From Strigamia acuminata (taxonomy: Eukaryota): a DNA stretch of 64,000 nucleotides. The stretch is taken from NCBI GenBank assembly GCA_949358305.1, contig OX442314.1:62001-126000 (forward strand). The letters are read 5' to 3'. Positions 16,837 to 53,052 of the stretch are shown here, in pieces. Below the pieces are notes generated by a model. That model did not search any database, was not told where the DNA came from, and saw nothing but the letters and a program-made list of their open reading frames with translations. Numbering within the stretch: position 1 is the stretch's first letter; each line of letters starts with the position of its first letter. The translations under genes and the position numbers were made by a program.

Positions 16837-17050
16837 TGTTATGTTTTGATTGCAAATTAATGAATAAGCTTTATGACGTACAATGTAATTAGTTAGAACA
16901 ATATACCATGGTTACCTATTGTGTGTAAGGTAGCCATGGTAACAGTATTCTGGAATCAGTCATGTGTGAACTATGAATAAATGAGGGAGTTTCGTGTACA
17001 CTCTTTCCCATTCCAATTTGAGAGTCTAAATCGTTGGTGAGAACCCTTCA
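16837..17050 (+). repeat. 5' LTR of element A
   Basis: TGTTATG...CCTTCA, AATAAA near 16976, followed by G-TGG. Inverted copy at 21298-21511. Confidence 0.8.
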
Positions 17051-20000
17051 GTGGTATCCACGATAAACAGTTTAAGTAAAACGTTTGGACAGTGGACTGG
17101 GCAGTTTGAAATTGCTAATACAGAGCGTATTTACCTAATTGTGAGTTTTTTGCGACAATTTTCAATTGATGAAGTCCGTGTCGGCGAGTCGACGTTCGGG
17201 CGGAGTCCTGGACTGTTTTTTGTGGCGGGCGGCGTGTGAGCCGTTGGCGGCGAGTTTTGGACGTGAGTTGGAGCGATTTTGGCGACGGGAGAAGCGCCAA
17301 GGACACGCGATCGAACACGGGACATCGAACGTGAGGTTTATCGGTTGGTGTAGTTTTCTGCTCCTTGTAATGGCGCAGGTAATGCTTGGTGGCATTCCTC
17401 CATTTTCTGGGTCCACGTTGCACGAGTGGACGAGTTGGAAGCAAACTTACCAACAATTCGTCTTGTTGAACAAGGTAGAAGCCGACAGACAGGTGCCGTT
17501 GCTTTTGACGGTCATCGACATCCCGATGTTCGACAAAATCAAGCGATGGGCGCATCCGAAGGACGTGGTGACGATGGGTTTGGATGTGATTTTGGAGGTG
17601 GTGGACGACCATTACAAGTCGGTCGACACTCCGTACATGGCACGGCAGAGATTTGGGGCACGGAAGCGACACGAGGCCGAGTCAATTGAAAAATACATCT
17701 CGGAACTCCGGATTTTGTCGCAGCGTTGCGGATTCGCAACCAAAGAGGAGACGGACGGGGCGATCGTTCATCAGGTCGTGCGCGGGTCGCGCAATGAGGT
17801 ATTGGTGCGAGAGATCCTTTTAAATATGCCGTTGACGGCGGCCGAGGTGACGAAGCGAGCGGTGGCCCACGAGATGGCGCACATCGCTGCGACGGGGCGA
17901 GAAGAACCACTGCCATTTTCGGATGAGGAATCGGCGAAAGCGACGTCGTCGGCTGCCGTGTTACAGTTGTCATCAGGTGGGAGACGCGGTGTGCAGAGGG
18001 GACGTGGAAGAGCCGGCCAGTTCGGTTCACCCAGCACTCCTGCCCCAGGGACCAGTGCCCAGCGAGGATCGTATCAGCGACCGTGGCGCGGTCGCCAAGG
18101 ACAGGGCAGTGGACGCGGCGGCCAACCAGTTAAAAGGGACGGCACACCCGTCGATTGTTTTTGGTGCGGCGGTCTGCATTTCGTAAAGGACTGCCCTTTT
18201 GAGCCAGCGCTGGGACCAAGGCCCAGCCAAAGTCAAGGGACTGGCGGACGATTGGTTGGTGAGTGGCGGAGAAAAGCGAGTGACCAGGAGGGGGCTTGCC
18301 CGCCGACGACGTTTCCACCTGATGTTGATGGCGGATTTGGAGGTGCAGGGGCACCCGACGAGAAATGGAGACAACGAAACGTCCCGATCAACGCTATACA
18401 GGAGCAAGATGAGGACTATGCCCTGTTTCATCTGGCGGGAGTGAGTGGGCGCCCGCCACCCCTTATTGTGCGAGCGGTTGTAAATTCTTTTAGTTTCAAT
18501 TTGTTGCTGGATACCGGCAGCGAATTGTCAGTGTTGAATGCGGCTGATTGTAATGTCTTGTTGAATAAGCGTTTGTTGTCAAGGAGGGAAATCATTCCCA
18601 CTACGGTCAAGCTGTTTGCGTACCAGCGCCAGCCCATCGAGGTGTTGGGGCAAGTTCGGTTAGTCATGCAAATGGGTCAGGTAACTGCAAGGGTAAATTT
18701 TGTGGTGGTGGGACGTTTGGGCCCAAGTCTTATCGGTCGAGACATAGTGCAAAAATTTGGGTGGCATAATATTTCTGCTGCTTTAATTTCAGGAAACGGA
18801 CGCGACTCGGCAGCGCCAGCGGACGGTGGTGGAGTTGGGTTGAGTGGTCAACATCCGTCGGCGAGCCCAGTGGATCATGTGGAAGCGGCGAGCACGAGCG
18901 CACAGAGAGCTGGTTCCCTTAGCGAGTTGTTGTTGCGTTATGCGCATGTTTTCAGTGAGTGTCTCGGTACCTATAAGGGAGACCAAGTCAACCTTATTTT
19001 AAGGCCTGACGCGGTCCCCAGGTTTTACAGGCCCAGGCCGATCCCGCTGCCCTTGAGAGATGCGGTCAGTTCCGAAATCGATGATTTGATTAGTAAGGGG
19101 GTGTTTAAGCCAATCCCGTTTTCCGCATGGGGGACCCCCCTCGTCACAGTTCGCAAGAAAGATGGGGGGGTTCGCCTGTGTGGCGATTACAGGTCCACCG
19201 TCAACGCAAACCTGCAGCCAGACCCTTATCCTTTACGCCGCATTGCTGAGCTTTTAGCCTCCATCGGGAGGGCGCGAGTGTTCAGTACGCTTGACCTTAG
19301 GCAAGCGTATTTGCAAATCCCGTTGTCCGAGGGGTCGGCCATTATAGCGGCCGTCAACACGCCCAAGGGCCTGATGGCCGTTACGAGGCTCCCGTTCGGG
19401 ACCATGCCTTCTGCAGGCATATTTCAGCGCATTATCATCTCGGTCTTGGACGGGGTGCCTCGTATTTTTGTGTACTTGGACGACATTCTTGTGGCAACTT
19501 GGAGTTTGCCGGAGCATTTGTGGGTTTTAGAGCAAATTTTTGTCAGGTTGGCTGACAGAGGATTACATCTGGCCAGGGAGAAGTGCTTATTTTGTCAGAG
19601 TGGGCTAAATTTTTTAGGGTTTGCGATTAGTGAGAAGGGAGTGAAACCCATCGCGTCAAAAGTGGAAGCGGTGTTGGCAATCCCACCTCCGGTGGATGTG
19701 AAGGGCCTCAGAACCTTTTTGGGAATGGTGGCTTTTTATGCCGTGTTCATTGAGCACTTGGCTGATAAGGCGACGCCACTGTATGAACTTCTGTGCACTG
19801 ACGCAAATTGGGTTTGGAACCAGCGTAGGCAGAGGGCGTTTGATGGGATCAAGCGGGCTTTGACCTCCGCTCCAATTTTGACATACTACGACCTCCACCG
19901 TCCGTTGGTGGTCGCATCGGACGCGTCCCCTTACAGGGTTGGAGCCGTCCTTGCCCACGTGGATGAGTTAGAGAGAGAATACCCGGTCGATTTTGCTTTC

Positions 20001-20641
20001 CGGTCCGTCAGCCGCGCCGAGAGCAATTATGCGCAGATAGATAAAGAGGCGCTGTCGGTTGTATTCGCGGTGAGAAAGTTCCACATTTACCTTATGGATA
20101 GGAAATTTACGATATACACCGACCATAAGCCCTTGCTGGGCATCTTGGGGTCTGACTGGCCGATCCCCTTGGTGGTCAGCCCCAGGATGCTCCGCTGGGC
20201 CTTGCTTTTATCGGCATATTCATATGTGTTGCGGTATCGCAGGGGGACGGACAATTCTAATGCTGATGTCCTGAGTAGGTTCCCTTGCGACCCGGCGCCG
20301 GCTGAGGTGGATGACCGACCCGTGTTTTTGGTGGAAATGGAGGGCAAGAATTTGTTAACAGCGGTGGAAGTCGCGAAGGCGACGTTGGTGGATGTGGAAC
20401 TGATGGTGGTGGTCGCCGCGGTTCGGTTGGGAAGCCCTGCCTCGCTCATGGGGCACCCTGAATTGGCGGTGTTTGTGAGTCGTTTTGAGGAGCTATCTTT
20501 GATGGCAGGAGTCCTCTTGTGGGGGGCTCGAGTAGTAATACCGGGTGCTTTGCAGACTAGGATGCTGCGGCTGCTTCATGAAGGCCATCCTGGCATCGTG
20601 GCCATGAAAAAGAGGGCCCGCAGTGCTATGTGGTGGGCGGG
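16837..20641 (+). mobile_element. Gypsy element A (Mag-like), 3'-truncated
   Basis: 214-bp 5' LTR (TG...CA, 16837-17050), PBS-like TGGTATCCACG at 17052, single gag-pol ORF. Breaks off in the integrase zinc finger at WWAG; no 3' LTR. Confidence 0.9.
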
Positions 20642-20666
20642 GTTCCGAGATGTATTTTTCAATTGA
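17166..20666 (+). CDS. gag-pol: Gag-Pol polyprotein of element A, truncated in integrase
   Basis: Zinc knuckle CFWCGGLHFVKDC, protease LDTGS, RT LDLRQAY/YLDD, RNase H DAS...EAL...TDHKPL, integrase start LHEGHPG. Likely true start is ATG 17370 (MAQV). The last codons come from the inversion junction. Confidence 0.9.
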   Translation: MMKSVSASRRSGGVLDCFLWRAACEPLAASFGRELERFWRREKRQGHAIEHGTSNVRFIGWCSFLLLVMAQVMLGGIPPFSGSTLHEWTSWKQTYQQFVLLNKVEADRQVPLLLTVIDIPMFDKIKRWAHPKDVVTMGLDVILEVVDDHYKSVDTPYMARQRFGARKRHEAESIEKYISELRILSQRCGFATKEETDGAIVHQVVRGSRNEVLVREILLNMPLTAAEVTKRAVAHEMAHIAATGREEPLPFSDEESAKATSSAAVLQLSSGGRRGVQRGRGRAGQFGSPSTPAPGTSAQRGSYQRPWRGRQGQGSGRGGQPVKRDGTPVDCFWCGGLHFVKDCPFEPALGPRPSQSQGTGGRLVGEWRRKASDQEGACPPTTFPPDVDGGFGGAGAPDEKWRQRNVPINAIQEQDEDYALFHLAGVSGRPPPLIVRAVVNSFSFNLLLDTGSELSVLNAADCNVLLNKRLLSRREIIPTTVKLFAYQRQPIEVLGQVRLVMQMGQVTARVNFVVVGRLGPSLIGRDIVQKFGWHNISAALISGNGRDSAAPADGGGVGLSGQHPSASPVDHVEAASTSAQRAGSLSELLLRYAHVFSECLGTYKGDQVNLILRPDAVPRFYRPRPIPLPLRDAVSSEIDDLISKGVFKPIPFSAWGTPLVTVRKKDGGVRLCGDYRSTVNANLQPDPYPLRRIAELLASIGRARVFSTLDLRQAYLQIPLSEGSAIIAAVNTPKGLMAVTRLPFGTMPSAGIFQRIIISVLDGVPRIFVYLDDILVATWSLPEHLWVLEQIFVRLADRGLHLAREKCLFCQSGLNFLGFAISEKGVKPIASKVEAVLAIPPPVDVKGLRTFLGMVAFYAVFIEHLADKATPLYELLCTDANWVWNQRRQRAFDGIKRALTSAPILTYYDLHRPLVVASDASPYRVGAVLAHVDELEREYPVDFAFRSVSRAESNYAQIDKEALSVVFAVRKFHIYLMDRKFTIYTDHKPLLGILGSDWPIPLVVSPRMLRWALLLSAYSYVLRYRRGTDNSNADVLSRFPCDPAPAEVDDRPVFLVEMEGKNLLTAVEVAKATLVDVELMVVVAAVRLGSPASLMGHPELAVFVSRFEELSLMAGVLLWGARVVIPGALQTRMLRLLHEGHPGIVAMKKRARSAMWWAGFRDVFFN

Positions 20667-22843
20667 CTCGGCCTCGTGTCGCTTCCGTGCCCCAAATCTC
20701 TGCCGTGCCATGTACGGAGTGTCGACCGACTTGTAATGGTTGTCCACCACCTCCAAAATCACATCCAAACCCATCGTCACCACGTCCTTCGGATGCGCCC
20801 ATCGCTTGATTTTGTCGAACATCGGGATGTCGATGACCGTCAAAAGCAACGGCACCTGTCTGTCGGCTTCTACCTTGTTCAACAAGACGAATTGTTGGTA
20901 AGTTTGCTTCCAACTCGTCCACTCGTGCAACGTGGACCCAGAAAATGGAGGAATGCCACCAAGCATTACCTGCGCCATTACAAGGAGCAGAAAACTACAC
21001 CAACCGATAAACCTCACGTTCGATGTCCCGTGTTCGATCGCGTGTCCTTGGCGCTTCTCCCGTCGCCAAAATCGCTCCAACTCACGTCCAAAACTCGCCG
21101 CCAACGGCTCACACGCCGCCCGCCACAAAAAACAGTCCAGGACTCCGCCCGAACGTCGACTCGCCGACACGGACTTCATCAATTGAAAATTGTCGCAAAA
21201 AACTCACAATTAGGTAAATACGCTCTGTATTAGCAATTTCAAACTGCCCAGTCCACTGTCCAAACGTTTTACTTAAACTGTTTATCGTGGATACCACTGA
21301 AGGGTTCTCACCAACGATTTAGACTCTCAAATTGGAATGGGAAAGAGTGTACACGAAACTCCCTCATTTATTCATAGTTCACACATGACTGATTCCAGAA
21401 TACTGTTACCATGGCTACCTTACACACAATAGGTAACCATGGTATATTGTTCTAACTAATTACATTGTACGTCATAAAGCTTATTCATTAATTTGCAATC
21501 AAAACATAACAAGAACCAGCATTTTTTGGTATAAAATACATTTTTTAAAAAAAGAAAGTCTTTTTATGCGCAAAAACAGCATTTTTTGGCATAAAATACA
21601 GCATTTTTTGGCATAAAAAACAGCATTTTTTGACATAAAATACATTTCTTCGCAAAAACAAACGCTTTTTATTCATTAAAATAGCATTCTGAAGGCTTAA
21701 AATATTTTTTCTCATAAAACAAACGCTCTTTATGCGCAAAAACAGCATTTTTTGGCATAAAATACAGCATTTTTTGGCATAAAATACAGCATTTTTTGGC
21801 ATAAAATACAGCATTTTTTGGCATAAAATACAGCATTTTTTGGCATAAAATACAGCATTTTATGGCATAAATTACAGCATTTTTTGGCATAAAATACAGC
21901 ATTTTTTGGCATAAAATACAGCATTTTTTGGCATAAAATACAGCATTTTATGGCATAAAATACAGCATTTTATGGCATAAAAGACAGCATTATTTGGCAT
22001 AAAATACAGCATTTTTTGGCATAAAATACAGCATTTTTTGGCATAAAATACAGCATTTTTTGGCATAAAAAACAGCATTTTTTGGCATAAAATACAGCAT
22101 TTTTTGGCATAAAATACAGCATTTTTTGGCATAAAATACAGCATTTTTTGGCATAAAATACAGCATTTTTTTGCATAAAATACAGCATTTTTTGGCATAA
22201 AATACAGCATTTTTTGGCATAAAAGACAGCATTATTTGGCATAAAATACAGCATTTTTTGGCATAAAATACAGCATTTTTTGGCATAAAATACAGCATTT
22301 TATGGCATAAAATACAGCATTTTTTGGCATAAAATACAGCATTTTTTTGCATAAAATACAGCATTTTTTGGCATAAAATACAGCATTATTTGGCATAAAA
22401 TACAGCATTTTTTGGCATAAAATACAGCATTTTTTGGCATAAAATACAGCATTTTTTGGCATAAAATACAGCATTTTTTGGCATAAAATACAGCATTTTT
22501 TGGCATAAAATACAGCATTTTTTGGCATAAAATACAGCATTTTTTGGCATAAAATACAGCATTTTTTGGCATAAAATACAGCATTTTTTGGCATAAAATA
22601 CAGCATTTTTTGGCATAAAATACAGCATTTTTTGGCATAAAATACAGCATTTTTTGGCATAAAATACAGCATTTTTTGGCATAAAATACAGCATTTTTTG
22701 GCATAAAATACAGCATTTTTTGGCATAAAATACAGCATTTTTTGGCATAAAATACAGCATTTTTTGGCAAAAAATACAGCATTTTTTGGCATAAAATACA
22801 GCATTTTTTGGCATAAAATACAGCATTTTTTGGCATAAAATAC
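20642..22843 (-). repeat. Inverted duplication of the 5' end of element A plus upstream satellite (array 2, minus orientation)
   Basis: 20642-21740 is the reverse complement of about 16608-17706 (coordinates sum to 38348), including the LTR/satellite junction. It continues as minus-strand 22-bp repeats to 22843. Confidence 0.93.
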
Positions 22844-23366
22844 TGTCACGGGTGTCCCTTCCCAATTCTTAATTTTCAATTTATTTTCTACATTTCTTCC
22901 CGATTTAATTTATGCACGCGACCTTGTCGCGGTATTGTTTAACCTCAAACCTCGTTCTCGAGTTGGTGACAATCGATCAGCTGATCACTCGATCAGCTGA
23001 CCGATTGTTATAAATATTGCGTCGTGTCGATATGCCGACACTTCGCGACCGATACCCATTTGGACCACAAGTCAATTTCTTTTCGTATCTATTTTTTCTG
23101 ACCGTGCTCGCTCTAACTCCCACCTTTTTATTCATCCGGTGACATTCGAAGCCCCCATTTGAGCTACCGAATTATCTGGAATTGGTCGATTATTTTCGAT
23201 ATAAAACATTATTCGATAACAAGAATCTAGTTGACAGAATTATTCAACGGAACCGGAGTTCTCGAATGACCGACACCCACGCTGAAGGTCATTTTCACTA
23301 CGGGGATTCCACGAACCTGCGACTGCGCGTTTAACACACGCATTGTTTTGTAACGTCATTGTTACA
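22844..23366 (+). repeat. 5' LTR of element B
   Basis: Direct repeat of 34871-35393; about 8 substitutions counted by eye. Confidence 0.95.
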
Positions 23367-23370
23367 AACT

Positions 23371-23390
23371 TGGCGAGCTAGACAGGATTC
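23371..23390 (+). promoter_or_regulatory. Primer-binding site, probably tRNA-Arg
   Basis: TGGCGAGCTAGACAGGATTC 4 nt after the LTR; the same 20-mer occurs in element C at 54695. Resembles the complement of a tRNA-Arg(ACG) 3' end as I recall it. Confidence 0.75.
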
Positions 23391-23473
23391 CGCTTTATTG
23401 AGGGAACCAGCGAGATAGTTAGTATTTTCATTTTTCGTTAATTATTACAATTTTCTTTTCACGTTATTTCAAA

Positions 23474-25351
23474 ATGGCGTCGCCGTTAGAAGGCAATGGT
23501 ATTCGATATCCAACCCTAGACCCTTTTGACATAAACGAGTTGGAATTGATGGAGGAAATGCGCGATAACAGAAGACAAAGGACAGCGACAACAGTTGTGA
23601 ACGTTACAACTACACCATTGGTAACATTTTCAACTGATATTTTAACATCAGTCGCGAGTCCAATTAATACAATGGTGCAACCAATTGTTTTAAATACAAC
23701 GACGACACGAATGTCACCAATTCAGTCGACTAGTAGTTCGTCGACGTTGCCAGTCGGTAATGGGGATCAAACAAACCCTCAAACATCGTTTTTTGCCGGT
23801 TTGCGCACCGAATTTCAGCAGTTTTTAAGGGATTGCAGGGAAAGCATTCTAACACAGCCTGCTTCACGTTCTCCCGGATCGGTACACTCCGAGGGATACT
23901 CTGCCTCAAAGGATCAACAGAGGGGTGACAGGCGAGCGTCTTCTTTATTTGCAGAACCTTCCACGGGCACAGCTCGAGCGAGCGCAACGTTTCGTCAGAG
24001 ATCAGCATCAACGACCAACCGACGCACAGGTGCGGCAGGAGCCCAAGGAATTCCAGTGGAGGAGTATAAAAGAACTCCATCACTTAAAGACGCGCGGGAT
24101 GATGCGACCAAAGCCAATGAAGAGGTAATGTCATCAATATTATACTCAAAAATGAAGTTCTCCAGACCGGAACCAGCAACTAGAGAACAGTTGTCATTAC
24201 CATCTATGCCAGACGAAGATGACCCGACTGGCCACCGTAGATGGAAAGTGGAAAAAATTCCACACTTTAATCCGGATAGGACAGACTTCGACACGGTAAA
24301 TTCATTTTTGGCAGAACTTTATTCGCACATGTGGCAAGTGGGAGCTCCCGAACGCGATTATTTGAAGGCTTATGCTGCCACCACGCTAAAAGGTCGCGCG
24401 TTAACTTGGTGGACGAATATGAAGCCTAAACCCACAACTTGGAAAGAATTCGAGGCAATCTTCCGACAAACGTATTCAATGAACACTGCGGCAGCAAATA
24501 CCAAATTGAGCCAACGAAAGCAAAGAGGTGGTGAATCTACAACTGCATTCTTGAGTGAAATAGCTCATTATTTGCAAATTGCGGGTTACAGAGATAAAGC
24601 ACTTAAGTGGGAAAAGGCCCAGAACATGCTGCAAACTCAAGTAGTATTATTGATGCGAAATTGGGGAGTTAATAGTCTAGAAAAAGCGATTCGAGTTGGA
24701 AATGATGTAGACAATAGATTACAACTCGACGCGTTGCGAGCGCTCGAATTCAAACAAAGTGGGACATTGGATATGGCCCTCATGCCCCTTCCTCAGGGGT
24801 ATTCCATGCCCACAATGTTAAAGCCCGTGGAAGAAACCAAGGTGGAGAAGCCCAAATATTCTACTTTCTCTAGATCTGGACAGTTTTCGCGACAGCTTTC
24901 CAAACAAATTGCTGCAGTTTTGCTGGCAATGGAAACACAGCCGGAAGAATCCCGACCGTACGGAGCAGATGAAGACTCGGAGAGTAGTGGATATGATCCC
25001 GAGGTGAGTAAACAGGATGTGGCAGCAGCAGCTGTTAAAACGGAGACTAAAGCAGCAGTCGCAAAAAATGAAATAAAAATCGCGACGACAAGACTCGAGG
25101 TCCCACCAAATGTTCCAAAGGATCATGTTTGTTCGACTCGGGTCACCACTTTTGATCCGACACCATCACCACCGGAATCAGTCAAACGCCCGGATCATGC
25201 AACCTGGCGTCGGACAAAAAAGAACCGTTGGTTTATGGTCGAAAAGGACACCTGGCGTCCATTTTGCCTGGTGTGTCATAAACTCTTCGAGCGGTCGGAA
25301 AACTTCCAAGGCCTGCCAGGAAGCGAGGCAACAAAGCCAGGCCAAAAGTAA
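23474..25351 (+). CDS. gag: Gag of element B
   Basis: 625 aa. Capsid-like LKGRALTWW...TWKEFEAIF and MHR-like RKQRGGESTTAFLSE. Clearly homologous to 54841-56757. Confidence 0.88.
   Translation: MASPLEGNGIRYPTLDPFDINELELMEEMRDNRRQRTATTVVNVTTTPLVTFSTDILTSVASPINTMVQPIVLNTTTTRMSPIQSTSSSSTLPVGNGDQTNPQTSFFAGLRTEFQQFLRDCRESILTQPASRSPGSVHSEGYSASKDQQRGDRRASSLFAEPSTGTARASATFRQRSASTTNRRTGAAGAQGIPVEEYKRTPSLKDARDDATKANEEVMSSILYSKMKFSRPEPATREQLSLPSMPDEDDPTGHRRWKVEKIPHFNPDRTDFDTVNSFLAELYSHMWQVGAPERDYLKAYAATTLKGRALTWWTNMKPKPTTWKEFEAIFRQTYSMNTAAANTKLSQRKQRGGESTTAFLSEIAHYLQIAGYRDKALKWEKAQNMLQTQVVLLMRNWGVNSLEKAIRVGNDVDNRLQLDALRALEFKQSGTLDMALMPLPQGYSMPTMLKPVEETKVEKPKYSTFSRSGQFSRQLSKQIAAVLLAMETQPEESRPYGADEDSESSGYDPEVSKQDVAAAAVKTETKAAVAKNEIKIATTRLEVPPNVPKDHVCSTRVTTFDPTPSPPESVKRPDHATWRRTKKNRWFMVEKDTWRPFCLVCHKLFERSENFQGLPGSEATKPGQK
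25297..25343 (+). promoter_or_regulatory. Putative -1 ribosomal frameshift signal of element B
   Basis: G_GAA_AAC in gag phase, 6-nt spacer, then GGCCTG (25310-25315) able to pair with CAGGCC (25338-25343). The pol frame is -1 and open from 25282. Confidence 0.6.
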
Positions 25352-25566
25352 ACACCAATTGCCTCGACTTACCCGAAAACTGTGCAGAAACACGAGAAAG
25401 TACAGCACAATCATCAGCGCCAACATCGACGGGTGGAGGCGCCACTCATAATTCTTTAATTCAAAACAATTCATCAATTGCTCCCAAGGAGCTTAAACTT
25501 CAAGAGAAATCAACTTCAGTTCTTCCGAAATCACCCATCATCACACTTCAACCGGAAAAATCCAAG

Positions 25567-28500
25567 TTGATCATTCTGCAACCTAAAAATCAGGACAAAG
25601 TGGTAAGTAAGATCATCACTAATGACTTTATTAACACTATTTCCAGGATTAGCGTCGCGACACTGCCTCCATCTGGCTCGATCACCCAAATGGATGCGAA
25701 GTTTGTGATGTTATCACCTGCAGAGCTAGTTGAAACGCGGGAGCCCATAATTGAGATCACCAAACGCGATAGATTTAAAGCTGATGCGCCATGTGTAAGA
25801 ATTGCGTGGTCGGATATCTCTTTCGTCGCGATTTTCGATTCTGGAGCCCAAACCTGCATAATGTCGAACAAATTATTTAACCAACTTAAGGAGAAAATGG
25901 AACTGCAAATGATGCCTTTAAATGAATTTGTCAGGACTGCAACAAATGATACTGTCAAGGTGACAGGTTCTGTACAGCTCGCAGTGAGAGGACCTCTCGC
26001 AATTATTAAATTCGTTTGCCTTGTTGTACCCGAAACATCTCAAGATTTGCTTTTGGGACGCGATTTTTGCCGTGCAGTAGGCCTATGCACGTTGCATGGT
26101 CGACAACAATGGTATTTAGAGGGATCCGAAGAGCGACGTAAGTTTTTGACAATTGACGAAGCATCAAGATCAGAACCAGTGCTATTGCTACCAATTGATA
26201 GAAAATATAGTAATGAACCCAAAATAGACACATTACCTGTCCCTACATCAAAAATCAATTGTGTTCTGCTTGACCATCGTCCACTTACACGAGAAGTGTT
26301 TGAATATCCAAACGACGATGCTCAATTTCGAGTAAAGAAAATCAAACATCGCGATTCTAACGAGTGGTCGAATATTTGGTCACCCAAACGACAGGAAAGA
26401 TCCACCTCATATTCGCGACGGGCGTCTGGTTTTCAGTTACAACCATCATTTAGTCAAATTCAACGTTGGAAGCGACAATCTAAACGTATTGCCAAAGTTA
26501 AACCAATTGTTCAACAGTTGAATCAACAAGCATCGCGACTTTTGAAAGAAGATATTCTTAAGGAAGCGGAAAGGCAGAAGATTGAACATCAAGATAAAGG
26601 TGACAGTATTGGACATATTAATCAATGTAATTTTTTATCTTATCAGCCAAATAAGGATCCAACATGCCTGGATTGGATTTACCATCAACTGTGGAATCAA
26701 CTGACGGTTCCACAAATCCAGCTTCTCATCAAAACACTCCGACCAGTTGCAAATGTTTTTCGAGAAGAGGTCGGACTCTGCAATAATACAGAGTTTGAAG
26801 TCAATTTAAAGCCAGGATTTCGACCTATCCATGTGCCAGTGCGACCCGTAAATCCAGCCAAGAAGTTGGTAATCGATAAATACATTGATGAAAAATTGAA
26901 ACAAGGAATAATTAGGCGATCCAAAAGCGATTGTGCCGTGGCACCAGTTGTGGTACCAAAAAAGACGAGTGACTGGAGAACTGCTATGGATTTTCGCCCA
27001 ATTAACGCTCAAACAATTCCTGATGTGTACCCATTACCAGACATTGACAACATTTTCGCGTATCTCGGTGGAGCCCATTGGTTTTCGATTATTGATGGTC
27101 GCGAAGCTTTTCATCAAATGGGAGTACGAAAAGGCGATGAAAGGTATTTAGCGTTTATTACTCACCGTGGACTTTTTGAGTACGTGAGAATGCCATTTGG
27201 GCCCATTAATGGACCAGCGACGTTACAACGCGCGATGAACAAAACTCTCGCGAAACATTTGTACAAATTTGTGTTTGTGTATTTGGATGACGTGATTGTA
27301 TTCAGCAAAACATACGAGGAAAATGTTGAACATTTAAAAATCATACTTGGTGAACTCTATGACGCTGGATTTACAATGAACGCGGATAAAACAGAGTTGT
27401 GTCGTCGACGTCTAGAAGTTTTGGGACATATCGTTGAAGCAGGTCAAATTACTCCAAACCCAAAAAAGGTAACAGCGATCCAAAGTTACCCTGCACCAAC
27501 AAATCTTCGCGAATTACAAAGATTTAAGGGAATGGTGGGATACTACCAAACTTTTATTCCTAACTTTGCAAAAATTTGCGAAGTATTTCGTCCACTTTTA
27601 AAGAAAGATTGTACATGGGTTTGGACTGACGCGCATCAAAGTGCTTTTGAACATTTGAAACGATTTGTCGCCGAACCAACTTTAAAGCGTAATTTTCCAA
27701 ATTGGAGTAAACCATTTATTCTACAAACTGACGCAAGTTATTCTGGTCTTGGGGCAGCTTTAATGCAAATTGATAATGAAGGAAATCGTTATCCAGTCGC
27801 ATTTGCATCGCGAGCATTAAACAGTGCCGAAAAAAATTATCCAGTCACTGAGATTGAATGTCTTGCAGCTGTTTGGGCGGTGAAAAGATTTAGACCTTAC
27901 CTGGAAATGATGGATTTCTACTTAGAGAGTGATCATATGTCACTCAAATGGCTATTTCAACAACGCGAACCACGAGGTAGACTGGCAAGATGGGTTTTAT
28001 CCCTTAGTGAATATCGTTTCACGTTCATCTACATTTCCGGATGTAAAAATCGAGTCGCAGATGCATTAAGTCGTGCTCCTGTCGACCCTCCAGAAGAAGA
28101 AGATGAGGACGACAGTCCCCTTGTAGATGATGCATGCTATCTTGCATTTTTTGACGATATTTCAGACTGGCCAGAATTAAGAGTCATAGAGGATTTGATA
28201 AATGAACCTCAGTTCGCATATTGTAAGTTAAGAAATAATTTTCATAATAATAGAAGACATTTAATTTCAGCCTTGACACCAACCAAATCAACGAAGAAGA
28301 AAAAACCACCAAAACAAATGGTGTCATTAAAACGACCGGTGGGACGGCCGCGAAAGGATCCTACAGTTCCAACTTTTTCACCGCGATCTCGTCGTGCAAT
28401 TTCAACTAGAACTAGAGCACGAATTCAAGACCCAACGCTGATTCCACCTACACCAGCTCCACCAACGCCATCAATTGGAAAACGTCTAGTGGGTCGACCA

Positions 28501-30716
28501 CGGAAGAGAAGAGCTATGGATCCAGTCGCTGCAGATACGTCACCAAAAACACGACGTTTAATTCCGCCTACAACTCCAGGAGCTGCACCCGTAAGGCGAC
28601 CAGTGGGAAGGCCTAAAAAACAATTAGTAATACCACCACAAATTCCACCAATCGCGATGCCGGTGCCACCACAAATTATTGTGGCTCCACCAACTCCTCC
28701 AACTCCATTAATTCCTTTAACCCCAACTCCGTTAATTCCCCCTCTTCCAGTCAGCATACCTCCATCACTGCCATCAATACCGGAGGAAGATGTACCAAAA
28801 CGTCCACCAGGGCGTCCAAAAAAACGCAAAACTGGAATTCCGGAGCCAATTGTGCCATCACCAAGGTTGAGAAGACTTACGGCACCTGTGTTACCACCTG
28901 AAGAGGTGCCATTTAAGCGTCGAGTTGGTAGACCACGTAAAACGCAGTCTGGTATTCCAATACCAATTGGAAAGCCAAAACCAATTTTGAAACCAACTTC
29001 TTCCCAAATTTATACACCATCACCACCAATGTCTCCAATTTCTTCACCCATTAGTCCCCATCCATTCTCAAAACCTTTTATAGATCCAGAAGAACCTCAA
29101 GCTGGACCATCGGGTTACAGGCCAGAACCATCTTATGCTGCGACGGACAGTTCGGAATCATCCTCAGATGAAAGCTACGGGCCAAATTTGGGCACACAGA
29201 CGCCCGAAACAGTTTATTTTCGTCCTTCTTTGGATCCCAGAAGGACTCCTAGACCACGTCGCAGACCACGACGGAACTACGATGAGGACGAGGGTGACGA
29301 GCCACCAAACGAAGTGGAGAGACAAGCGGAGTTGGATCACGACCCACCAGTAGATCATCCAGCATTTGAAGTTCTACCTAGTGCAGCAGAAATCATCGCA
29401 GCACAGCAGGACGATCAAGATTCGCGAGAACTGGTGGAGTATTTAACTTTACACACACTTCCGGATGAACCGGAACGTGCTAATTTCATTTTACGTAATT
29501 CTAATGATTTTGGCATGTCAAAAGGGTTACTTTGTCGTTTTCCACCTGTGGACATAAATAAGTTTCACAAAGGTCGCCAAATTTATTTACCCACAATTGC
29601 CCTTCGCGAACGATATTTTCGCGCTTTACATTATCCGCCAATTGGGGGACACATGGGAATTGAAAAAACTTTACAAAGATTAAAATCTAGAGTATACTGG
29701 CCGAAAATGCGAGAAGATGTGCAGACCTGGATATTGGTTTGTGACGCATGTCAACGAGCAAAACCTTTAAATCGCTTGCCATATGGTAAACTGCTCATGT
29801 CAAAACCGCAACATTTATTTTCAGCCATTTATATAGACTATTACGGTAAGAAACCTCGCTCGACAGGCGGAAATTGCTATACATTCGTAATGGTAGATGC
29901 AGCAAGCAGATGGTTGGACGTGAGACTTACCGAAAACGCGAACATTCCTACTACTATTAGACAGATTGTTAAAATTTGTAAAAGATGGGGGTTCCCGAAA
30001 GTCATAATAAGTGACAACGCACCAACATTCAGGTCCCCCGAATTTCAAAATCAATGTCAGCAATTAGGAGCGGTGAACAGATATACAGCAGTATATCATC
30101 CGCAGAGTAATTTAGCCGAAAGGTTAAATCAATCGCTAAAAAATTGCATTTTAGCCTACATTGATGACCATTCAAGGTGGGACATCCACATAGGATATTT
30201 TGTTCTCGCGATAAATTCAGCATACCAAGTGTCGTTAAAATTCTCTCCCTTTAAAATGGTCATTGGCCAGGAGGCCAGATTTCCCGGAGATCTAGAGAGC
30301 GATTCGGATGATGGCGAGCCTTTACCGCCATCAGAAGCGGAGAATTTACACGCTGCGAAAATCAGGCACAAAAGATGGTTTGATCGCGGTAGAAGGCCCC
30401 ATGATTTTAAACCAGGAGACTGGGTAACTTTAAAAAATCGCCAACAATCATCTGCTGATCGCCAATTTGCCGCTGGTTTGAGACAGCGAACTGAAGGAAT
30501 TCATATTATACACAAGTTGGTGGGACCAAATACTGTAATATTAATGGATAATGAAAGGAGCAAATCACCCCCATACAATGTGATTGAATTAAGACACTGG
30601 CATTTTGATGATGCTGAAGCACCAACAGTCGAAGAAATTAATTTGATTGATTTACACGTTGACAAATTCATCTTATCAACTTTTGACATTTTTACAGCGC
30701 ACATAGTTACTTCTAA

Positions 30717-30723
<7 letters not shown>
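25567..30723 (+). CDS. pol: Pol of element B (PR-RT-RNase H-AT-hook-like linker-integrase)
   Basis: FDSGA, YLDD, TDAS...ECLA...SDH, HHCC (LHYPPIGGH...CDAC), catalytic IDYY/SDNA/AERLN. The frame is open from 25282 and overlaps gag. Confidence 0.95.

Positions 30724-30760
<37 letters not shown>
30722..30760 (+). repeat. A39 tract starting in the pol stop codon
   Basis: TAA followed by an uninterrupted A run. Confidence 0.9.
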
Positions 30761-30761
<1 letters not shown>

Positions 30762-31511
30762 GAATGTAACCATGCGGTGTTAGATTGTGGTAACTTTATG
30801 TGATATTGTTTATTTCTTGCATTATAGAAAATTGCATTTTTTATAATTTGAAGTTTGGTTGTTTTCATTTCATTTCGTTCGTTCGTCTTTGTTCGTTTGA
30901 TTTGTTTACTAATTAAATGTTCCCTATGATGTTTGTCAATGTCTGTGTTGCATTGTGGTATTTGTAAAAAGTTAAACCATCTACTCTGAGGTTTATAGTA
31001 ATTATTTTTGTCACTAGGTGACGTTGATATTTTAGCCTCGCACAGGGCACATGCAATTCAGAAAACGGATAAATGTCGCGAGACTTAATTTTAATAATCA
31101 AATGAATTTTTAATTTTTTTTCTATTCATAACTAAAGACATGCGCATTATTTTTAAGGAAATTTGGTTAAGAATTAAACCTTTTGGGGGATTAAGCTACT
31201 GGTTTATGCCTGGCAACAGATATGATTACTCAGCACTCTTCAAACTGACCAATCCTAGAGCGCTAGCCTCTAAGGCCATGCGTCTTTTATTTCGCGCATG
31301 CCGGTACTTGATTTTCAACACGCGGTTAGTCTAGCGGACATTTCATCTAATTTATCATGTCGTGTGTCGAGTGCCGTATTTTGTTTTGTCCATTGTAGCA
31401 TATCGAATTATGTGAGTACTAATTAAGTGTTTTTCATTGTTGTCAGTTCAATAGCTAATTTTATTTTGTTCTCTAAAAAGACCATATAGTTTATCGCGAA
31501 TTTTCTCAAAC

Positions 31512-33965
31512 ATGTCGAACAGCAAACTCCAAAATGGCGACGAAAAACAAAGGAAGTTAAAATATCCGAAGAATTTGCCCATTCCACCAATTAGAGCGAA
31601 AGGAGAATGGATATACCCTCACTTCCACCCCGACGAGCCTCTCGAACAATCTTTCCTGAACTTCGAAGTTTGTCCTATATGCTCGGGCTGGGGTGTTGAG
31701 ACCACACCACCGGTTAAAGAAATTGTTTGTCGCGCATGTGAAGGAGCAGGAGAACTCAGGAGATGTAAATTTCGGGAGTGGATGCGCATCTACTTTAATT
31801 GGGTGTTCCACTTCAAATATGCAGACGGGGTGAGGATATACGAATGGATTTTGCCGCCAACACGAATAATTCAGGGGAGCATCACCGCGCTTCTAAGATT
31901 TCGCTTTACACACTATTGGTATTGGGCCAGGGTGCAGCAACTGGCCGAAGAGCGTGGTGTAGCGCCGCGGCGATGGATTTATCCGATGGGAAACGCGATC
32001 CGATGCCAACATGAGGCAGTGCCGCGTATGAGCAACGAGGACATCGCGAAATTATCTAATTTTGCCAGAGAGCAATATCTTACCGACCTACAATACTCAG
32101 GCATGATTAAAACTCTCCCTGCATTTCTAGGAACAACTGCCAACTCCGAGCAGGCGAGATTATGGATCGAAGATTTAAATCGCGAAATCGACCTCCTCAC
32201 GGCCGAAGCCAGAGCCCAGCCGATGCCTGAACCTCGTTTATATATGCCCAAAGGTACTGAAAGTTTCGCGGTCCGATACAAGGAGAGTGGTGGCCAGGTA
32301 GTCCAAGCTATCATGGCAGGCGGTACTACGTTGCCGAGAGACCGCTCTCGTGACCATCAATTCACACCAGGAATGGTGTATGCACCGAAGCCTTTACAAA
32401 TTGCGCAAGCGACCACACCAGTCGAGGAAGAGGAAGAAGTGACAAAACACGATGAGTCGACGTCATTGCCGTCCGAATCTAATAAGGAAATCAGCCCTGA
32501 CAGAATGAGACCTGGAATGCTGTCAAAAATGGTAAATTTTCCGCGACCTATCAAATCAGTCCCAATTTTGACTCCAATACCGGACCCCACACAACGTCGC
32601 CTGGACGAGTTCATGGAAAGAAACAGAGACATTAGATCACTACCACCCAGTATTGAAAAGAAAAATGAAGAATCGGCACCGGCTAAATGCGAATTGAAGC
32701 CAACTGCGACAGAACTTCATATGAAGAGGGTTCCGACTCCATTCAAGAGTCAGATTCCAATCAAATCAACATCAATCCCAACCAAGACGACTACTACAAC
32801 AGTCAACACCACAGCCACGACGAGCGTGATGGCAACAACCAATACCGTAGCGGCACAGGCTTCTACGACACGCAGCTCGCCTCAAGATGGTGTCCTGTCA
32901 ACAACCAAAACCACAAAGGTAATCACTCCTCCTCCTCATTATACTCAAACCGATCATTACGGAGTATCTGACTGCCCCACCTTCACTCTTCATTATATTC
33001 GAAACATTTTGAAACCCTTCGAGCTTCAGGTTCTGAGGAGAAGCGCTACCATCAGCAACTCCCGTATGGAGTTGGAGCCGAAGGGTTGGAGGGAACTTTT
33101 TACCGTGATGTCGAGTCGAGATTTTGACATCAATCAATACGATGTCTACCCAGTAAAAAATGCGACATTCAAAGAGCTGAAGAACATCGCCGCCAGTGTT
33201 GAAGCTCGTATGGACCAAGAGATCCACATGGATGAGGATCGTCTATTCGCTGTACTGGTATGGGAAACGCATCGGGTAATGGGCATGTATGTTAAAAAAT
33301 TCGCGATTGAACGGGAAAAGAAGAAATATGCGGTGCAGGAAAGTTTGAGGAGGGAAGCTGAAAAAGTGGCGGCAGAGAAAATCGAATTCGAAAGAATAGA
33401 AAAAGCCCGAAAGGAAAAAGAGGATAAAGAGAAAGAGGAAATTCAGAAAAGAAGAGAAGAGGAGAAAAGGGTTCGAGAGATTCAAGTCCAAGAGATGTCA
33501 AAACTTGCCGTCTCTTCGCGATTTATGGCGCCCACTCCTGAGGAAAAATCCTTGAAAGACGTACTTTCTCTCCCAGTTTCCAAGGAAAAACCGGAGATAA
33601 CCATTTTAATGTCCAACGCAATAATTCCGACGATGAACATTATCTGCGATTTTACTTTCAATCCAACAAAGTGTGTGAAACTAATGATCCCTTATCACAC
33701 ACAGAGTGCCCTTTTCCGATCATTGGCATTGTCGGATTTAAATTTAACCATTCCCGAGACCGAAGAAGTTATTGAACTAATGGACACATATTTTCGCGAT
33801 GCATTTATCGACCTATGCTTGCAGGAAATTAATCGCCGTGGAGCCGCAAATGTGGCCAGAGCCCGTTTAATTATCATAGATGTGGCGTTTGATTTGATTC
33901 GACATTACTCGGACCCGGAACAACGCCTTATCGTTAAAGAATTCCACAAGGACTTGACGTCGTAA
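31512..33965 (+). CDS. ORF3 of element B, 817 aa, unknown function, not env-like
   Basis: Long ATG-initiated open frame between pol and the 3' LTR. Motifs CPICSGWG and CRACEGAG, a Thr/Pro-rich middle and an E/K/R-rich coiled-coil-like stretch. No evident signal peptide or membrane anchor. Confidence 0.85.
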   Translation: MSNSKLQNGDEKQRKLKYPKNLPIPPIRAKGEWIYPHFHPDEPLEQSFLNFEVCPICSGWGVETTPPVKEIVCRACEGAGELRRCKFREWMRIYFNWVFHFKYADGVRIYEWILPPTRIIQGSITALLRFRFTHYWYWARVQQLAEERGVAPRRWIYPMGNAIRCQHEAVPRMSNEDIAKLSNFAREQYLTDLQYSGMIKTLPAFLGTTANSEQARLWIEDLNREIDLLTAEARAQPMPEPRLYMPKGTESFAVRYKESGGQVVQAIMAGGTTLPRDRSRDHQFTPGMVYAPKPLQIAQATTPVEEEEEVTKHDESTSLPSESNKEISPDRMRPGMLSKMVNFPRPIKSVPILTPIPDPTQRRLDEFMERNRDIRSLPPSIEKKNEESAPAKCELKPTATELHMKRVPTPFKSQIPIKSTSIPTKTTTTTVNTTATTSVMATTNTVAAQASTTRSSPQDGVLSTTKTTKVITPPPHYTQTDHYGVSDCPTFTLHYIRNILKPFELQVLRRSATISNSRMELEPKGWRELFTVMSSRDFDINQYDVYPVKNATFKELKNIAASVEARMDQEIHMDEDRLFAVLVWETHRVMGMYVKKFAIEREKKKYAVQESLRREAEKVAAEKIEFERIEKARKEKEDKEKEEIQKRREEEKRVREIQVQEMSKLAVSSRFMAPTPEEKSLKDVLSLPVSKEKPEITILMSNAIIPTMNIICDFTFNPTKCVKLMIPYHTQSALFRSLALSDLNLTIPETEEVIELMDTYFRDAFIDLCLQEINRRGAANVARARLIIIDVAFDLIRHYSDPEQRLIVKEFHKDLTS

Positions 33966-34870
33966 GTTTTCATTTTGCCGGATGGTGTCGAGAAGGGTAA
34001 CCCTCGATCAGGCCGCCAGTGCAACCATTCGGCGGGATGAAAATCTTTCCACAGTGATTTGTGTAAATGTGCAGTGCTGTGATTTTTATTTTCGCGAAGA
34101 ACTTTATTTACTCTTTTCTATTTTCCGTTATTTAAATTGTGTAAATCTGTCCTGTCTTCTTTTCCTTCGTTGTTCTATTCTTCATTCGCGACAATTCATG
34201 ATATAAAAATATTGTGAACATTTAGCATCACCATGGTGACGAACTTCATGTGAAATTAAAAAACTGTTTTATTTCCATTGGACATTAGTGGTACTGAAAT
34301 GGTACAAAATGAAAAAATTCGCGAAACCATCGCGATCTTCTGATGTGGACTCACATTTTCGAATTATCAAATCATCATTTTATATGTTCATCACAAGTGT
34401 TTTATTTTTATTTTAAGTGTCCAATGATAGTGTTCCTTTATTAAGATTGAAAATTTTGAATATTTTAATTCAGTATAACTAATTGTTTTATTTTCAGACT
34501 TTTATTTCAAGTGATATCATTCTTTTATACTTACCATTTTGCCGATACGAGTAGTGTCGATGATCCAAAGCTGTGATAATTGTTTTACTTTACCTTTTTT
34601 GATGCCAAAGTGTTTTCTAGTGTTCGTTTATGATTCCGCGGGATATCTCGCGAAGTAATTTTATTTTCATTGTTTCATTTCATGCTTAATTCGCGATAAA
34701 TCATCGCCACCGTTTTATTCTTATTGATTTTATTAGTTATAATCATTGCTTTTAAGTACCATGGTACCATTGTTAATTTTTGAAATCGTTTATGTTCACA
34801 TTTATATTGCGATCCTTTGGATCACCCTACCTTTTGTTTACATTGTAATAAAAGTCTGGGTGGCGGAGGA

Positions 34871-35393
34871 TGTCACGGATGTCCCTTCCCAATTCTTAAT
34901 TTTCAATTTATTTTCTACATTTCTTCCCGATTTAATTTATGCACGCAACCTTGTCGCGGTATTGTTTAACCTCAAACCCCGTTCTCGAGTTGGTGACAAT
35001 CGATCAGCTGATCACTCGATCAGCTGACCGATTGTTATAAATATCGCGTCGTGTCGATATGCCGACACTTCGCGACCGATACCCATTTGGACCACAAGTC
35101 AATTTATTTTCGTATCTATTTTTTCTGACCGTGCTCGCTCTAACTCCCACCTTTTTATTCATCCGGTGACATTCGAAGCCCCCATTTGAGCTACCGAATT
35201 ATCTGGAATTGGTCGATTATTTTCGATATAAAACATTATTCGATAACAAGAATCTAGTTGACAGAATTATTCAACGGAACCGGAGTTCTCGAATGACCGA
35301 CACCCACGCTGAAGGTCATTTTTACTACGGGGATTCCACGAACCTGCGACTGCGCGTTTAACACACGTTTTGTTTTGTAACGTCATTGTTACA
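34871..35393 (+). repeat. 3' LTR of element B
   Basis: Preceded by PPT-like GGGTGGCGGAGGA; direct repeat of 22844-23366. Confidence 0.95.
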
Positions 35394-38300
35394 GTATTTT
35401 ATGCCAAAAAATGCTGTATTTTATGCCAAAAAATGCTGTATTTTATGCCAAAAAATGCTGTATTTTATGCCAAAAAATGCTGTATTTTATGCCAAAAAAT
35501 GCTGTATTTTATGCCAAAAAATGCTGTATTTTATGCCAAAAAATGCTGTATTTTATGCCAAAAAATGCTGTATTTTATGCCAAAAAATGCTGTATTTTAT
35601 GCCAAAAAATGCTGTATTTTATGCCAAAAAATGCTGTATTTTATGCCAAAAAATGCTGTATTTTATGCCAAAAAATGCTGTATTTTATGCCAAAAAATGC
35701 TGTATTTTATGCCAAAAAATGCTGTTTTTGCGCATAAAAAGAATTTGTTTTTTGAAGAAATGTATTTTATACCAAAAAATGCTGTTTCGGTGCATTAAAA
35801 GCGTTTGTTTTTATGAGAAAAAATATTTTCTGCCTTCAAAATGCTGTTTTGGCGGATAAAAAGCGTTTGTTTTAATGAGAGAAAATATTTTATGCCTCCA
35901 GAATGCTATTTTGATGAATAAAAAGAGTTTGTTTTTGCGAATAAATGTATTTTATGTCAAAAAATGCTGTTTTTGCGCATAAAAAGACTTTGTTTTTTGA
36001 AGAAATGTATTTTATACTAAAAAATGCTGTTTCGGTGCATTTAAAGCGTTTGTTTTTATGAGAAAAAATATTTTAAGCTCTCAGTGCCCTCAGAGCCCTC
36101 AGAGCCCTCAGAGCCCTCAGAGCCCTCAGAGCCCTCAGAGCCCTCAGAGCCCTCAGAGCCCTCAGAGCCCTCAGAGCCCTCAGAGCTTTCAGAGCCCTCA
36201 GAGCCCTCAGAGCTCTCAGAGCCCTCACACCTCTCAGAGCCTTCAGAGCCCTCAGAGCCTTCAGAGCTCTTAGAGCCCTCACACTTCTCAGAGCCCTCAG
36301 AGCCCTCAGAGCCTTCAGAGCTCTCAGTGCCCTTAGAGCCCTCAGAGCCCTCAGAGCCCTCAGAGCCCTCAGAGCCCTCAGAGCCCTCAGTCCGCTCAGA
36401 GCTTTCAGAGCCCTCAAAGCCCTCAGAGCCCTCAGACTCAGAGCCCTCAGAGCCCTCAGAGCCCTCAGAGCTCTCAGAGCCCTCACACCTCTCAGAGCCT
36501 TCAGAGCCCTCAGAGCCTTCAGAGCTCTTAGAGCCCTCACACTTCTCAGAGCCCTCAGAGCCCTCAGAGCCTTCAGAGCCCTCAGAGCCCTCAGAGCCCT
36601 CAGATCCCTCAGAGCCCTCAGAGTCCTCAGAGCTCTCAGAGCCCTCAGACTCAGAGCCCTCAGAGCCCTCAGAGCCCTCAGAGCCCTCAGAGCCCTCAGA
36701 GCCCTCAGACTCAGAGTCCTCAGAGCCCTCAGTCCGCTCAGAGCTTTCAGAGCCCTCAAAGCCCTCAGAGCCCTCAGACTCAGAGCCCTCAGAGCCCTCA
36801 GAGCTTTCAGACTCAGAGCCCTTAGACTCAGAGCCCTCAGACTCAGAGCCCTCAGAAGTCTCAGAGCCCTCAGAAGTCTCAGAGCCCTCAGAAGTCTCAG
36901 AGCCCTCAGAGCCCTCAGAGCCCTCAGAGCCTCAAAAAACGCTGTATTTTATGCCAAAAAATGCTGTATTTTATGCCAAAAAATGCTGTATTTTATGTCA
37001 AAAAATGCTGTATTTTATGCCAAAAAATGCTGTATTTTATGCCAAAAAATGCTGTATTTTATGGGAAAAAATGCTGTATTTTATGCAAAAAAATGCTGTA
37101 TTTTATGCAAAAAAATGCTATATTTTATGCCAAAAAATGCTGTATTTTATGCCAAAAAATGCTGTATTTTATGCCAAAAATGCTGTATTTTATGCAAAAA
37201 AATGCTGTATTTTATGCAAAAAATGCTGTATTTTATGCCAAAAAATACTGTTTTTGTGCATAATAAGACTTTGTTTTTTGAAGAAATGTATTTTATACCA
37301 AAAAATGCTGTTTCGGTGCATTAAAAGCGTTTGTTTTTATGAGAAAAAATATTTTAAGCTCTCAGTGCCCTCAGAGCCCTCAGAGCCCTCAGAGCCCTCA
37401 GAGCTCTCAGAGCCCTCAGAGCCCTCAGAGCCCTCAGAGCCCTCAGAGCCCTCAGAGCCCTCAGAGCCCTCAGAGCCCTCAGAGCCCTCAGAGCTTTCAG
37501 AGCCCTCAGAGCCCTCAGAGCTCTCAGAGCCCTCACACCTCTCAGAGCTTTCAGAGCCCTCAGAGCCCTCAGAGCCTTCAGAGCTCTCAGTGCCCTCAGA
37601 GCCCTCAGAGCCCTCAGAGCCCTCAGAGTCCTCAGAGCCCTCAGAGTCCTCAGAGCCCTCAGAGCCCTCAGACTCAGAGCCCTCAGAGCCCTCAGAGCCC
37701 TCAGAGCCCTCAGAGCCCTCAGAGCCCTCAGAGCCCTCAGAGCCCTCAGAGCTTTCAGAGCCCTCAGAGCCCTCAGAGCTTTCAGAGCCCTCACACCTCT
37801 CAGAGCTTTCACAGCCCTCAGAGCCCTCAGAGCCTTCAGAGCTCTCAGTGCCCTCAGAGCCCTCAGAGCCCTCAGAGCCCTCAGAGCCCTCAGAGCCCTC
37901 AGAGTCCTCAGAGCCCTCAGAGCTCTCAGACTCAGAGCCCTCAGAGCCCTCAGAGCCCTCAGAGCCCTCAGAGCCCTCAGAGCCCTCAGAGCCCTCAGAG
38001 CCCTCAGAGCCCTCAGAGCCCTCAGAGCCCTCAGAGCCCTCAGAGCTTTCAGAGCTTTCAGAGCCCTCAGAGCCCTCAGAGCTCTCAGAGCCCTCACACC
38101 TCTCAGAGCTTTCAGAGCCCTCAGAGCCCTCAGAGCCTTCAGAGCTCTCAGTGCCCTCAGAGCCCTCAGAGCCCTCAGAGCCCTCAGAGCCCTCAGAGCC
38201 CTCAGAGTCCTCAGAGCCCTCAGAGCTCTCAGACTCAGAGCCCTCAGAGCTCTCAGAGCCTTCAGAGCTCTCAGTGCCCTCAGAGCCCTCAGAGCCCTCA

Positions 38301-39059
38301 GAGCCCTCAGAGCCCTCAGAGCCCTCAGAGTCCTCAGAGCCCTCAGAGCTCTCAGACTCAGAGCCCTCAGAGCCCTCAGAGCCCTCAGAGCCCTCAGAGC
38401 CCTCAGAGCCCTCAGAGCCCTCAGAGCCCTCAGAGCCCTCAGAGCCCTCAGACTCAGAGTCCTCAGAGCCCTCAGTCCGCTCAGAGCCCTCAGAGCCCTC
38501 AGAGCCCTCAGAGCCTCAAAAAACGCTGTATTTTATGCCAAAAAATGCTGTATTTTATGCCAAAAAATGCTGTATTTTATGGAAAAAAATGCTGTATTTT
38601 ATGGAAAAAAATGCTGTATTTTATGCCAAAAAATGCTGTTTTATGCCAAAAAATGCTGTTTTATGCCAAAAAATGCTGTATTTTATGCCAAAAAATGCTG
38701 TATTTTATGCCAAAAAATGCTGTATTTTATGCCAAAAAATGCTGTATTTTATGCCAAAAAATGCTGTATTTTATGCAAAAAAATGCTGTATTTTATGCAA
38801 AAAAAATGCTGTATTTTATGCAAAAAAATGCTGTATTTTATGCCAAAAAATGCTGTATTTTATGCAAAAAAATGCTGTATTTTATGCCAAAAAATACTGT
38901 TTTTGCACATAAAAAGACTTTGTTTTTTGAAGAAATGTATTTTATACCAAAAAATGCTGTTTCGGTGCATTAAAAGCGTTTGTTTTTATGAGAAAAAATA
39001 TTTTAAGCTCTCAGTGCCCTCAGAGCCCTCAGAGCCTTCAGAGCCCTCAGAAGTCTCAG

Positions 39060-52950: not shown

Positions 52951-53052
52951 TGTTGTTAGAGAATTTACTCCTTTGGTCCAAGCACCAAATGGGCAATCCA
53001 TCATTTCTGGCTCAAGAATAGGAGGTGGTTCGAGGGCGGGAGAATGAGGATG

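Follow-up and report, generated by a model that had tools for sequence, protein, structure and literature searches.

Changes of strand are common in satellite arrays, and their cause is seldom readable. Where transposable elements (TEs) mediate an inversion, the published signature consists of opposite orientation, exchanged target site duplications (TSDs) and chimeric copies, as set out in work on the Galileo inversions of Drosophila buzzatii (PMC2775673). A 64,000-nucleotide stretch of the Strigamia acuminata genome (assembly GCA_949358305.1, contig OX442314.1, positions 62,001 to 126,000, forward strand; hereafter the window) contains a Ty3/Gypsy long terminal repeat (LTR) retrotransposon, element B, that sits exactly at a strand change of a 22-mer satellite. 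Element B is likely a recombinant of two opposite-direction insertions that shared one GTAT/ATAC site in the 22-mer, marking a satellite inversion breakpoint. The mechanism of rearrangement is itself already known, and the likeliest view is that it appears here in a satellite setting.

The resemblance to Galileo (PMC2775673) extends to a TE at an inversion breakpoint, putative parents of opposite orientation, exchanged TSDs and a chimeric element. Galileo, however, is a DNA transposon in unique DNA for which both breakpoints were recovered, whereas B is an LTR element in a satellite with one breakpoint copy seen; in B, both putative parents would also have occupied one repeat phase, so that the exchanged flanks look mirror-like. 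A second group of relevant elements is found in Drosophila, where two reports describe a 4-bp TSD with an ATAT target motif, used anywhere in the genome, for the Gypsy elements 297, 412, blood, mdg1, Stalker2 and Transpac (PMC3276498), and an ATAT/TATA-type target with a 4-bp TSD for the Gypsy superfamily (PMC5408687). B shares their Ty3/Gypsy domain order, and its junction 4-mer is one base from ATAT; unlike them, it has a 493-aa linker in Pol and a third open reading frame (ORF) without resemblance to env. LTR elements of the Gypsy type have also been described from within satellite arrays of animals, where recombination of the host has reshaped them (10.64898/2026.09.17.752431); the copies described there lie on the same strand with identical TSDs, whereas B has no TSD and its array flips. 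A literature search for strand switches in satellites and for the phase of insertions, covering titles and the openings of abstracts with most subscription papers outside it, yielded none on mirror-flanked LTR elements, and passages of 10.1101/2025.06.02.657473 contain nothing bearing on insertion phase. The switch at B retains integrase-precise ends and thus leaves a simple signature (mirror flanks and no TSD), one that TSD-based annotation would discard.

Mirror-image flanks of element B

Element B spans positions 22844-35393 (~12.5 kb) and is embedded in the 22-mer satellite. At its left junction (22843/22844), GGCATAAAATAC is followed directly by TGTCACGG, giving ATAC-TG, with the hyphen marking the joint; at its right junction (35393/35394), GTTACA is followed by GTATTTTATGCC, giving CA-GTAT. 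The two flanks are exact reverse complements over 73 bp, and no direct TSD of the 4-6 bp expected for a normal Ty3/Gypsy insertion was found at B. Both junctions imply the same target site from GTAT, approached in opposite directions, whatever the length of the TSD. Beyond the 73 bp, the left flank has variants of its own among its 50 units and the right flank has 15 perfect ones (Table 1), which indicates that the flanks mirror each other in phase and are not mutual copies; that the left flank simply repeats the right one in inverted form is ruled out there. The polarity of the 22-mer in the first 48 kb of the window is + at 3-16749, - at 21588-22832, + at 35394-43702 and - at 45429-48315, so that the strand changes from - to + across B. 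The initial annotation of this DNA had described mirror-image flanks at one satellite base, a strand change across the element and about 8 mismatches between LTRs of 523 positions beside open ORFs, and all of these observations were borne out.

The LTR mismatches are the second line of evidence. The pair differs at 8 of 523 positions (~1.5%), in seven events with no indel (LTR positions 9, 77, 109, 175, 236, 453 and 498-499), and the three ORFs of 642, 1813 and 836 codons are open. The LTRs of one element are identical at insertion. If the seven events reflected age, ~65 substitutions and 2.6-3.2 stop codons would be expected in the 9765 ORF sites, and the probability of finding all ORFs open would be 0.06 with substitutions alone, 0.013 with an assumed 5% of indels and 0.003 with an assumed 10%. 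The differences are hard to ascribe to age, given three open ORFs, and the low probability favours, although it does not prove, an origin of the two LTRs from two lineages. The divergence also exceeds that between element A, located to the left of B, and its inverted copy A' (p 0.002). B may be chimeric, its LTRs differing beside intact ORFs.

A third line of evidence comes from assembled contigs of public sequencing runs. Per run, 61, 39 and 21 contigs lie on the left junction (24 pieces listed, 110 further) and 125, 43 and 42 on the right (24 listed, 198 further); contigs drop variants and so show presence rather than absence, and none spans 12.5 kb. Two of the runs, X1 and X2, contain B. 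Each yielded a 201-base contig that passes from satellite through B LTR position 174 at the left junction, an 83-base contig that runs without mismatch from 3'-type LTR into GTAT at the right junction, and a 63-base contig in which the 5'-type LTR continues into the primer site. Each junction contig carries 27 satellite letters, fewer than the 31-letter rule for formal bridging requires; this is what 31-letter words would permit if both junctions share the satellite plus TGT. Depths of the bins are sums of these same contigs (476.8 = 282.5 + 194.3 and 450.9 = 194.3 + 256.7; 114.4 = 71.1 + 43.3 and 93.3 = 43.3 + 50), which places the right-junction contig, reversed, on the left flank as well. 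With two LTR types at 1:1, the depths per LTR are 198/228/194/257 in X1 and 50/46.5/43/50 in X2, and no third B flank type was found among the listed X1 and X2 contigs or in the depth sums. Many B-specific contigs have depths near 200-250 (X1) or 45-50 (X2), a hint from which copy number is not derivable. In X3, a run of a second study with the same species label, the B-specific LTR part at 35325-35389 had no cover; absence is thereby unproven, and nothing is drawn from it.

Table 1. Features of element B, its satellite flanks and the neighbouring fragments of element A (positions in the window).
Feature	Positions	Strand	Remarks
Element A, 5' part	16837..20642	+	gag-pol ORF up to integrase zinc finger; cut at 20642
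Inverted copy of A 5' end (A')	20643..21511	-	1 difference in 1106 bases vs 16600-17705
B left flank	21744..22843	-	50 reversed 22-mer units with own variants; ATAC at LTR boundary
B 5' LTR	22844..23366	+	523 bp, TG...CA; starting TGT is reverse complement of final three bases
B likely primer-binding site	23371..23388	+	starts TGG, 4 bases past LTR
B gag ORF	23474..25351	+	Retrotrans_gag
B pol ORF	25282..30723	+	-1 frame; protease, reverse transcriptase, RNase H, 493-aa linker, integrase
Five GRP[RK] AT-hook-like motifs	28327..28950	+	Pol aa 1021, 1071, 1109, 1177, 1216; proline-rich stretch ahead of integrase zinc finger
A run	30722..30760	+	39 bases; begins within B pol stop codon
B third ORF	31512..33965	+	817 aa counted from ATG; not env-like
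B polypurine tract	34858..34870	+	directly 5' of 3' LTR
B 3' LTR	34871..35393	+	523 bp; 8 differences vs 5' LTR
B right flank	35394..35723	+	15 perfect 22-mer units from GTAT, then ~62-mer and 9-mer blocks
A pol fragment	43717..45154	+	1438 bp; 8 differences vs A; third strand switch

Origin of the arrangement

A recombinational origin could be envisaged as follows. An integrase that prefers to cut at a bendable GTAT step would cause any two insertions in the array to share a phase. Homologous recombination between two inverted 12.5-kb copies would then give each product one flank per parent, one of them reversed, and the reciprocal product would carry GTAT-TG and CA-ATAC. That reciprocal copy may subsequently have been lost, possibly in the event that formed the junction between A and A' 2.2 kb to the left, where a deletion or fold-back would remove it. 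Ectopic recombination had been proposed in the initial annotation, and it holds up as the best reading in that it accounts for the mirror phase, the strand switch and the 1.5% LTR divergence beside intact ORFs; the two independent insertions stay inferred, since the predicted reciprocal and parental junctions were not seen in X1 and X2 contigs.

Several points weigh against this reading. It requires that a subfamily without a single normal copy among those seen had inserted twice. The parental junctions (GTAT-TG and CA-ATAC) did not appear among the listed X1 and X2 contigs or in the depth sums, nor did the reciprocal product in the window or the listed contigs of these runs, so that B-type LTRs look like one locus, and X1 and X2 belong to one study that may include the assembled sample. 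The LTR divergence is not significantly greater than that between A and its fragment (8/1438, p 0.09), and gene conversion could equally cause the LTR differences. With respect to the target, the phase is based on two junctions from which the TSD length and motif of B are not measurable, three other positions in the unit also match ATAT at 3 of 4 bases, and the relative D begins after CAGTT outside the satellite, an ill fit to a strict family-wide GTAT motif.

An apparent single locus is, moreover, what both alternatives with a single insertion predict. By one of these, an aberrant integration, a single intasome would have joined its CA ends in two stretches of the array, in each case at the bond that precedes GTAT in the same sense, itself causing the inversion, with LTR differences arising later by mutation or conversion. 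Such an event would explain, without lost partners, why the phases are identical and why other B junctions are apparently lacking, and both ends of B are indeed precise and of integrase type. Joining to two targets is rare in vivo, however, and seven LTR events by age leave all ORFs open at a probability of only ~0.003-0.06, making this an unlikely origin. By the other, one normal insertion would have been followed by a template switch at the terminal inverted bases of the LTR: reverse synthesis, having passed the right flank and entered the end of the 3' LTR, would jump at TGT to the 5' LTR start, whereby the left flank becomes a reversed right-type flank. One insertion would suffice and no phase preference would be needed; the LTR start (TGTCAC) and reversed LTR end (TGTAAC) have 5 of 6 bases in common, and both a fold-back-like junction, within A, and a third strand switch occur in the region. 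Yet the contiguous homology amounts to 3 bases only, the LTR divergence is left unexplained, and the left array (50 units), which has variants in common with the array linked to A, does not copy the right one (15 units), so that a second switch would be needed; we judge this course no more credible than aberrant integration, and perhaps slightly less so.

A further alternative is an error of assembly, by which two normal B loci, each with its TSD, were connected through the sequence that they have in common; a mis-join of two loci had been named in the initial annotation as one outcome that would undo the case. A 12.5-kb repeat within a satellite invites such an error; assemblers prune branches, and the expected contig joining polypurine tract and 3' LTR, which must exist, is absent from the left-junction listing and from the listed contigs altogether. 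From two normal loci, however, one would expect four kinds of junction, with contigs that break off where the LTRs end, whereas X1 and X2 show two unbroken types with their depths fully accounted for; the arms at A and A' have different numbers of units and different variants, which a fold-back of reads would not produce. With both junctions and both LTR types at ~1:1 in the contigs of X1 and X2, and no third flank, a mis-join is very unlikely and the arrangement is probably present in the DNA. A blunt non-homologous join at B was also considered and rejected, for it would have had to land on the first base of the LTR and on the mirror phase at once.

What the shared phase says about targeting is a separate matter from the recombinant origin of B. 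Two random cuts in the 22-mer would have an identical phase with a chance of 1/22, and a local target motif of the integrase would raise this chance considerably. GTAT/ATAC matches ATAT at 3 of 4 bases and, in a comparison made after the fact, is the sole such 4-mer in the unit that alternates purine and pyrimidine. The end of element C lies 2 bases from the B phase (ATACAG-TG), and the start of A lies ~5-6 bases from it in a degenerate unit, if the A LTR starts at 16837. In a tandem repeat, an ordinary local motif would be enough to produce a fixed phase without any recognition of the satellite. The phase-specific targeting of the satellite unit announced in the initial annotation was thus an over-reading of two junctions whose 4-mer is a 3-of-4 match to the ordinary Gypsy motif, and targeting specific to the satellite is a lead rather than a finding.

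Coding content of element B and its AT-hook-like motifs

Element B is an intact Ty3/Gypsy LTR retrotransposon without env, as shown by gag and pol in Ty3/Gypsy order, a likely primer-binding site, a polypurine tract and a third ORF that has neither a membrane segment nor a match. Among solved structures, its reverse transcriptase (RT) is closest to that of Ty3 (E 5e-82). Close protein relatives were not found in the protein collection, the best having 37-42% identity among the 120 of 314 matches listed, and a search with the linker between RNase H and integrase gave weak matches at the RNase H and integrase edges and nothing better. The third ORF had no match in Pfam, Atlas or PDB and no 19-residue hydropathy window above 1.8, hence no membrane segment, and on these grounds its identification as env, which would have placed B among the errantiviruses, was rejected. 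It does possess a CxxC...CxxC arrangement close to its N-terminus and a charged, likely coiled-coil stretch. The primer site, which we take to resemble the end of an arginine tRNA, lies in a region with a 93% match over 30 bases in the relative D (54685-54714). The run of 39 A residues at the end of pol could be either genuine or a homopolymer error. A 40-bp imperfect palindrome (22969-23008) occupies a portion of the LTR that, in each of the three runs, also belongs to related LTR families of high depth.

A further feature of B Pol, absent from the initial annotation, is a cluster of five AT-hook-like motifs in the linker, which measures 493 aa against a median of 75 in relatives. The five GRP[RK] cores use differing codons, and none of 20000 shuffles attained five. 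The cores read [VP]GRP[RK], not RGRP; with the AT_hook profile (PF02178), two of four short pieces matched with 13.9 and 15 bits, against a cut-off of 17.4, and so fell below it, and the whole 233-aa stretch did not match. For comparison, 223 proteins were fetched, 211 of them with a measurable linker. A single core was present in the linkers of 2 of these 211, and two or more in none. Over the whole protein, at least two motifs occurred in 13 of 223, always near the integrase C-terminus, a count enriched by a second search that used words from the hook region of B. These 13 (P0001, P0019, P0125, P0130, P0138, P0139, P0141, P0171, P0182, P0192, P0206, P0207 and P0223) are distant gypsy Pol proteins, mostly with paired C-terminal GRP[RK], and these pairs may be a targeting module that has been little described. 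Gypsy integrases other than that of B thus have hook-like motifs as well; what is unique to B is their number and position. For example, the invertebrate proteins P0001, P0125, P0139 and P0223 likewise have such motifs attached to the integrase part, but with one to three at its C-terminus as opposed to five on the N-terminal side in B, and their RT/RNase H identity to B is ~30-42%.

The hooks might tether B to the satellite, a suggestion we make tentatively; the GRP[RK] stretches could equally serve nuclear localisation or general chromatin binding, and D, with one core, lies outside the array. If an AT-hook-like arm truly binds the satellite, it would represent a direct, sequence-read route by which a retrotransposon is targeted to satellite DNA. 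It is conceivable, though improbable, that B belongs to a gypsy lineage in which a five-fold arm of the integrase grips the A6/T4 tracts of the 22-mer and confines the cut to a single bond, and does so with such force that the intasome can join its two ends to that bond in separate array stretches, inverting the satellite upon integration. A literature search of the same scope as above, on AT-hooks with retrotransposons or integrases, produced none on gypsy Pol.

Neighbouring elements and the satellite

All three strand switches of the 48-kb array fall on LTR-element DNA, the two others, missed in the initial annotation, being at fragments of element A. The junction of A with A' (20642/20643) forms the opposite end from B of a 2.2-kb inverted block. 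It is fold-back-like, with a 2.9-kb spacer and a possible microhomology of only 1-2 bases; a fold-back artefact of reads was rejected as the source of the inverted block, given arms of 37 versus 50 units, different variants and the asymmetry of the 2.9-kb spacer. The internal pol fragment of A at 43717-45154 joins + satellite on its left to - satellite on its right, with ~3 bases in common at the right join.

Other elements occur towards the right of the window. A non-coding DNA transposon (39060-40167) lies within the 9-mer array; its terminal inverted repeats read CACTGG, and it has a duplication of 3 bp (CAG). Element C, a gypsy element on the - strand (48329-52707), has an open ORF of 1257 codons and one intact end; its second LTR was not found within the window, and a transposon end with 94% similarity (52708-52950) truncates its 5' side. 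Element D (53651-64000) is a relative of B with the first 8 LTR bases identical and a near-identical primer site, the identity between the two being 48-65% over Pol and 58-65% over RT/RNase H. Directly before the start of D, another sequence has a pair of motifs, one TATA-like and one initiator-like; D itself contains an internal duplication (56365-58831 and 61534-64000) of 99.96% identity.

The satellite itself (1-16830 and 35394-48328) consists of 22-mer runs, a ~62-mer with degenerate 22-mer pieces and a GC-rich 9-mer, and this composite repeats as kilobase higher-order blocks of 97-99% identity. Its pattern had 0 matches in metagenome contigs and 0 in viral contigs. At 7173-7463, ~290 bases of AT-rich non-satellite DNA break a ~62-mer block. 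Finally, TTAGG and TTTAGG repeats, which resemble arthropod telomeric units, are present at 53052-53137 inside another repeat.

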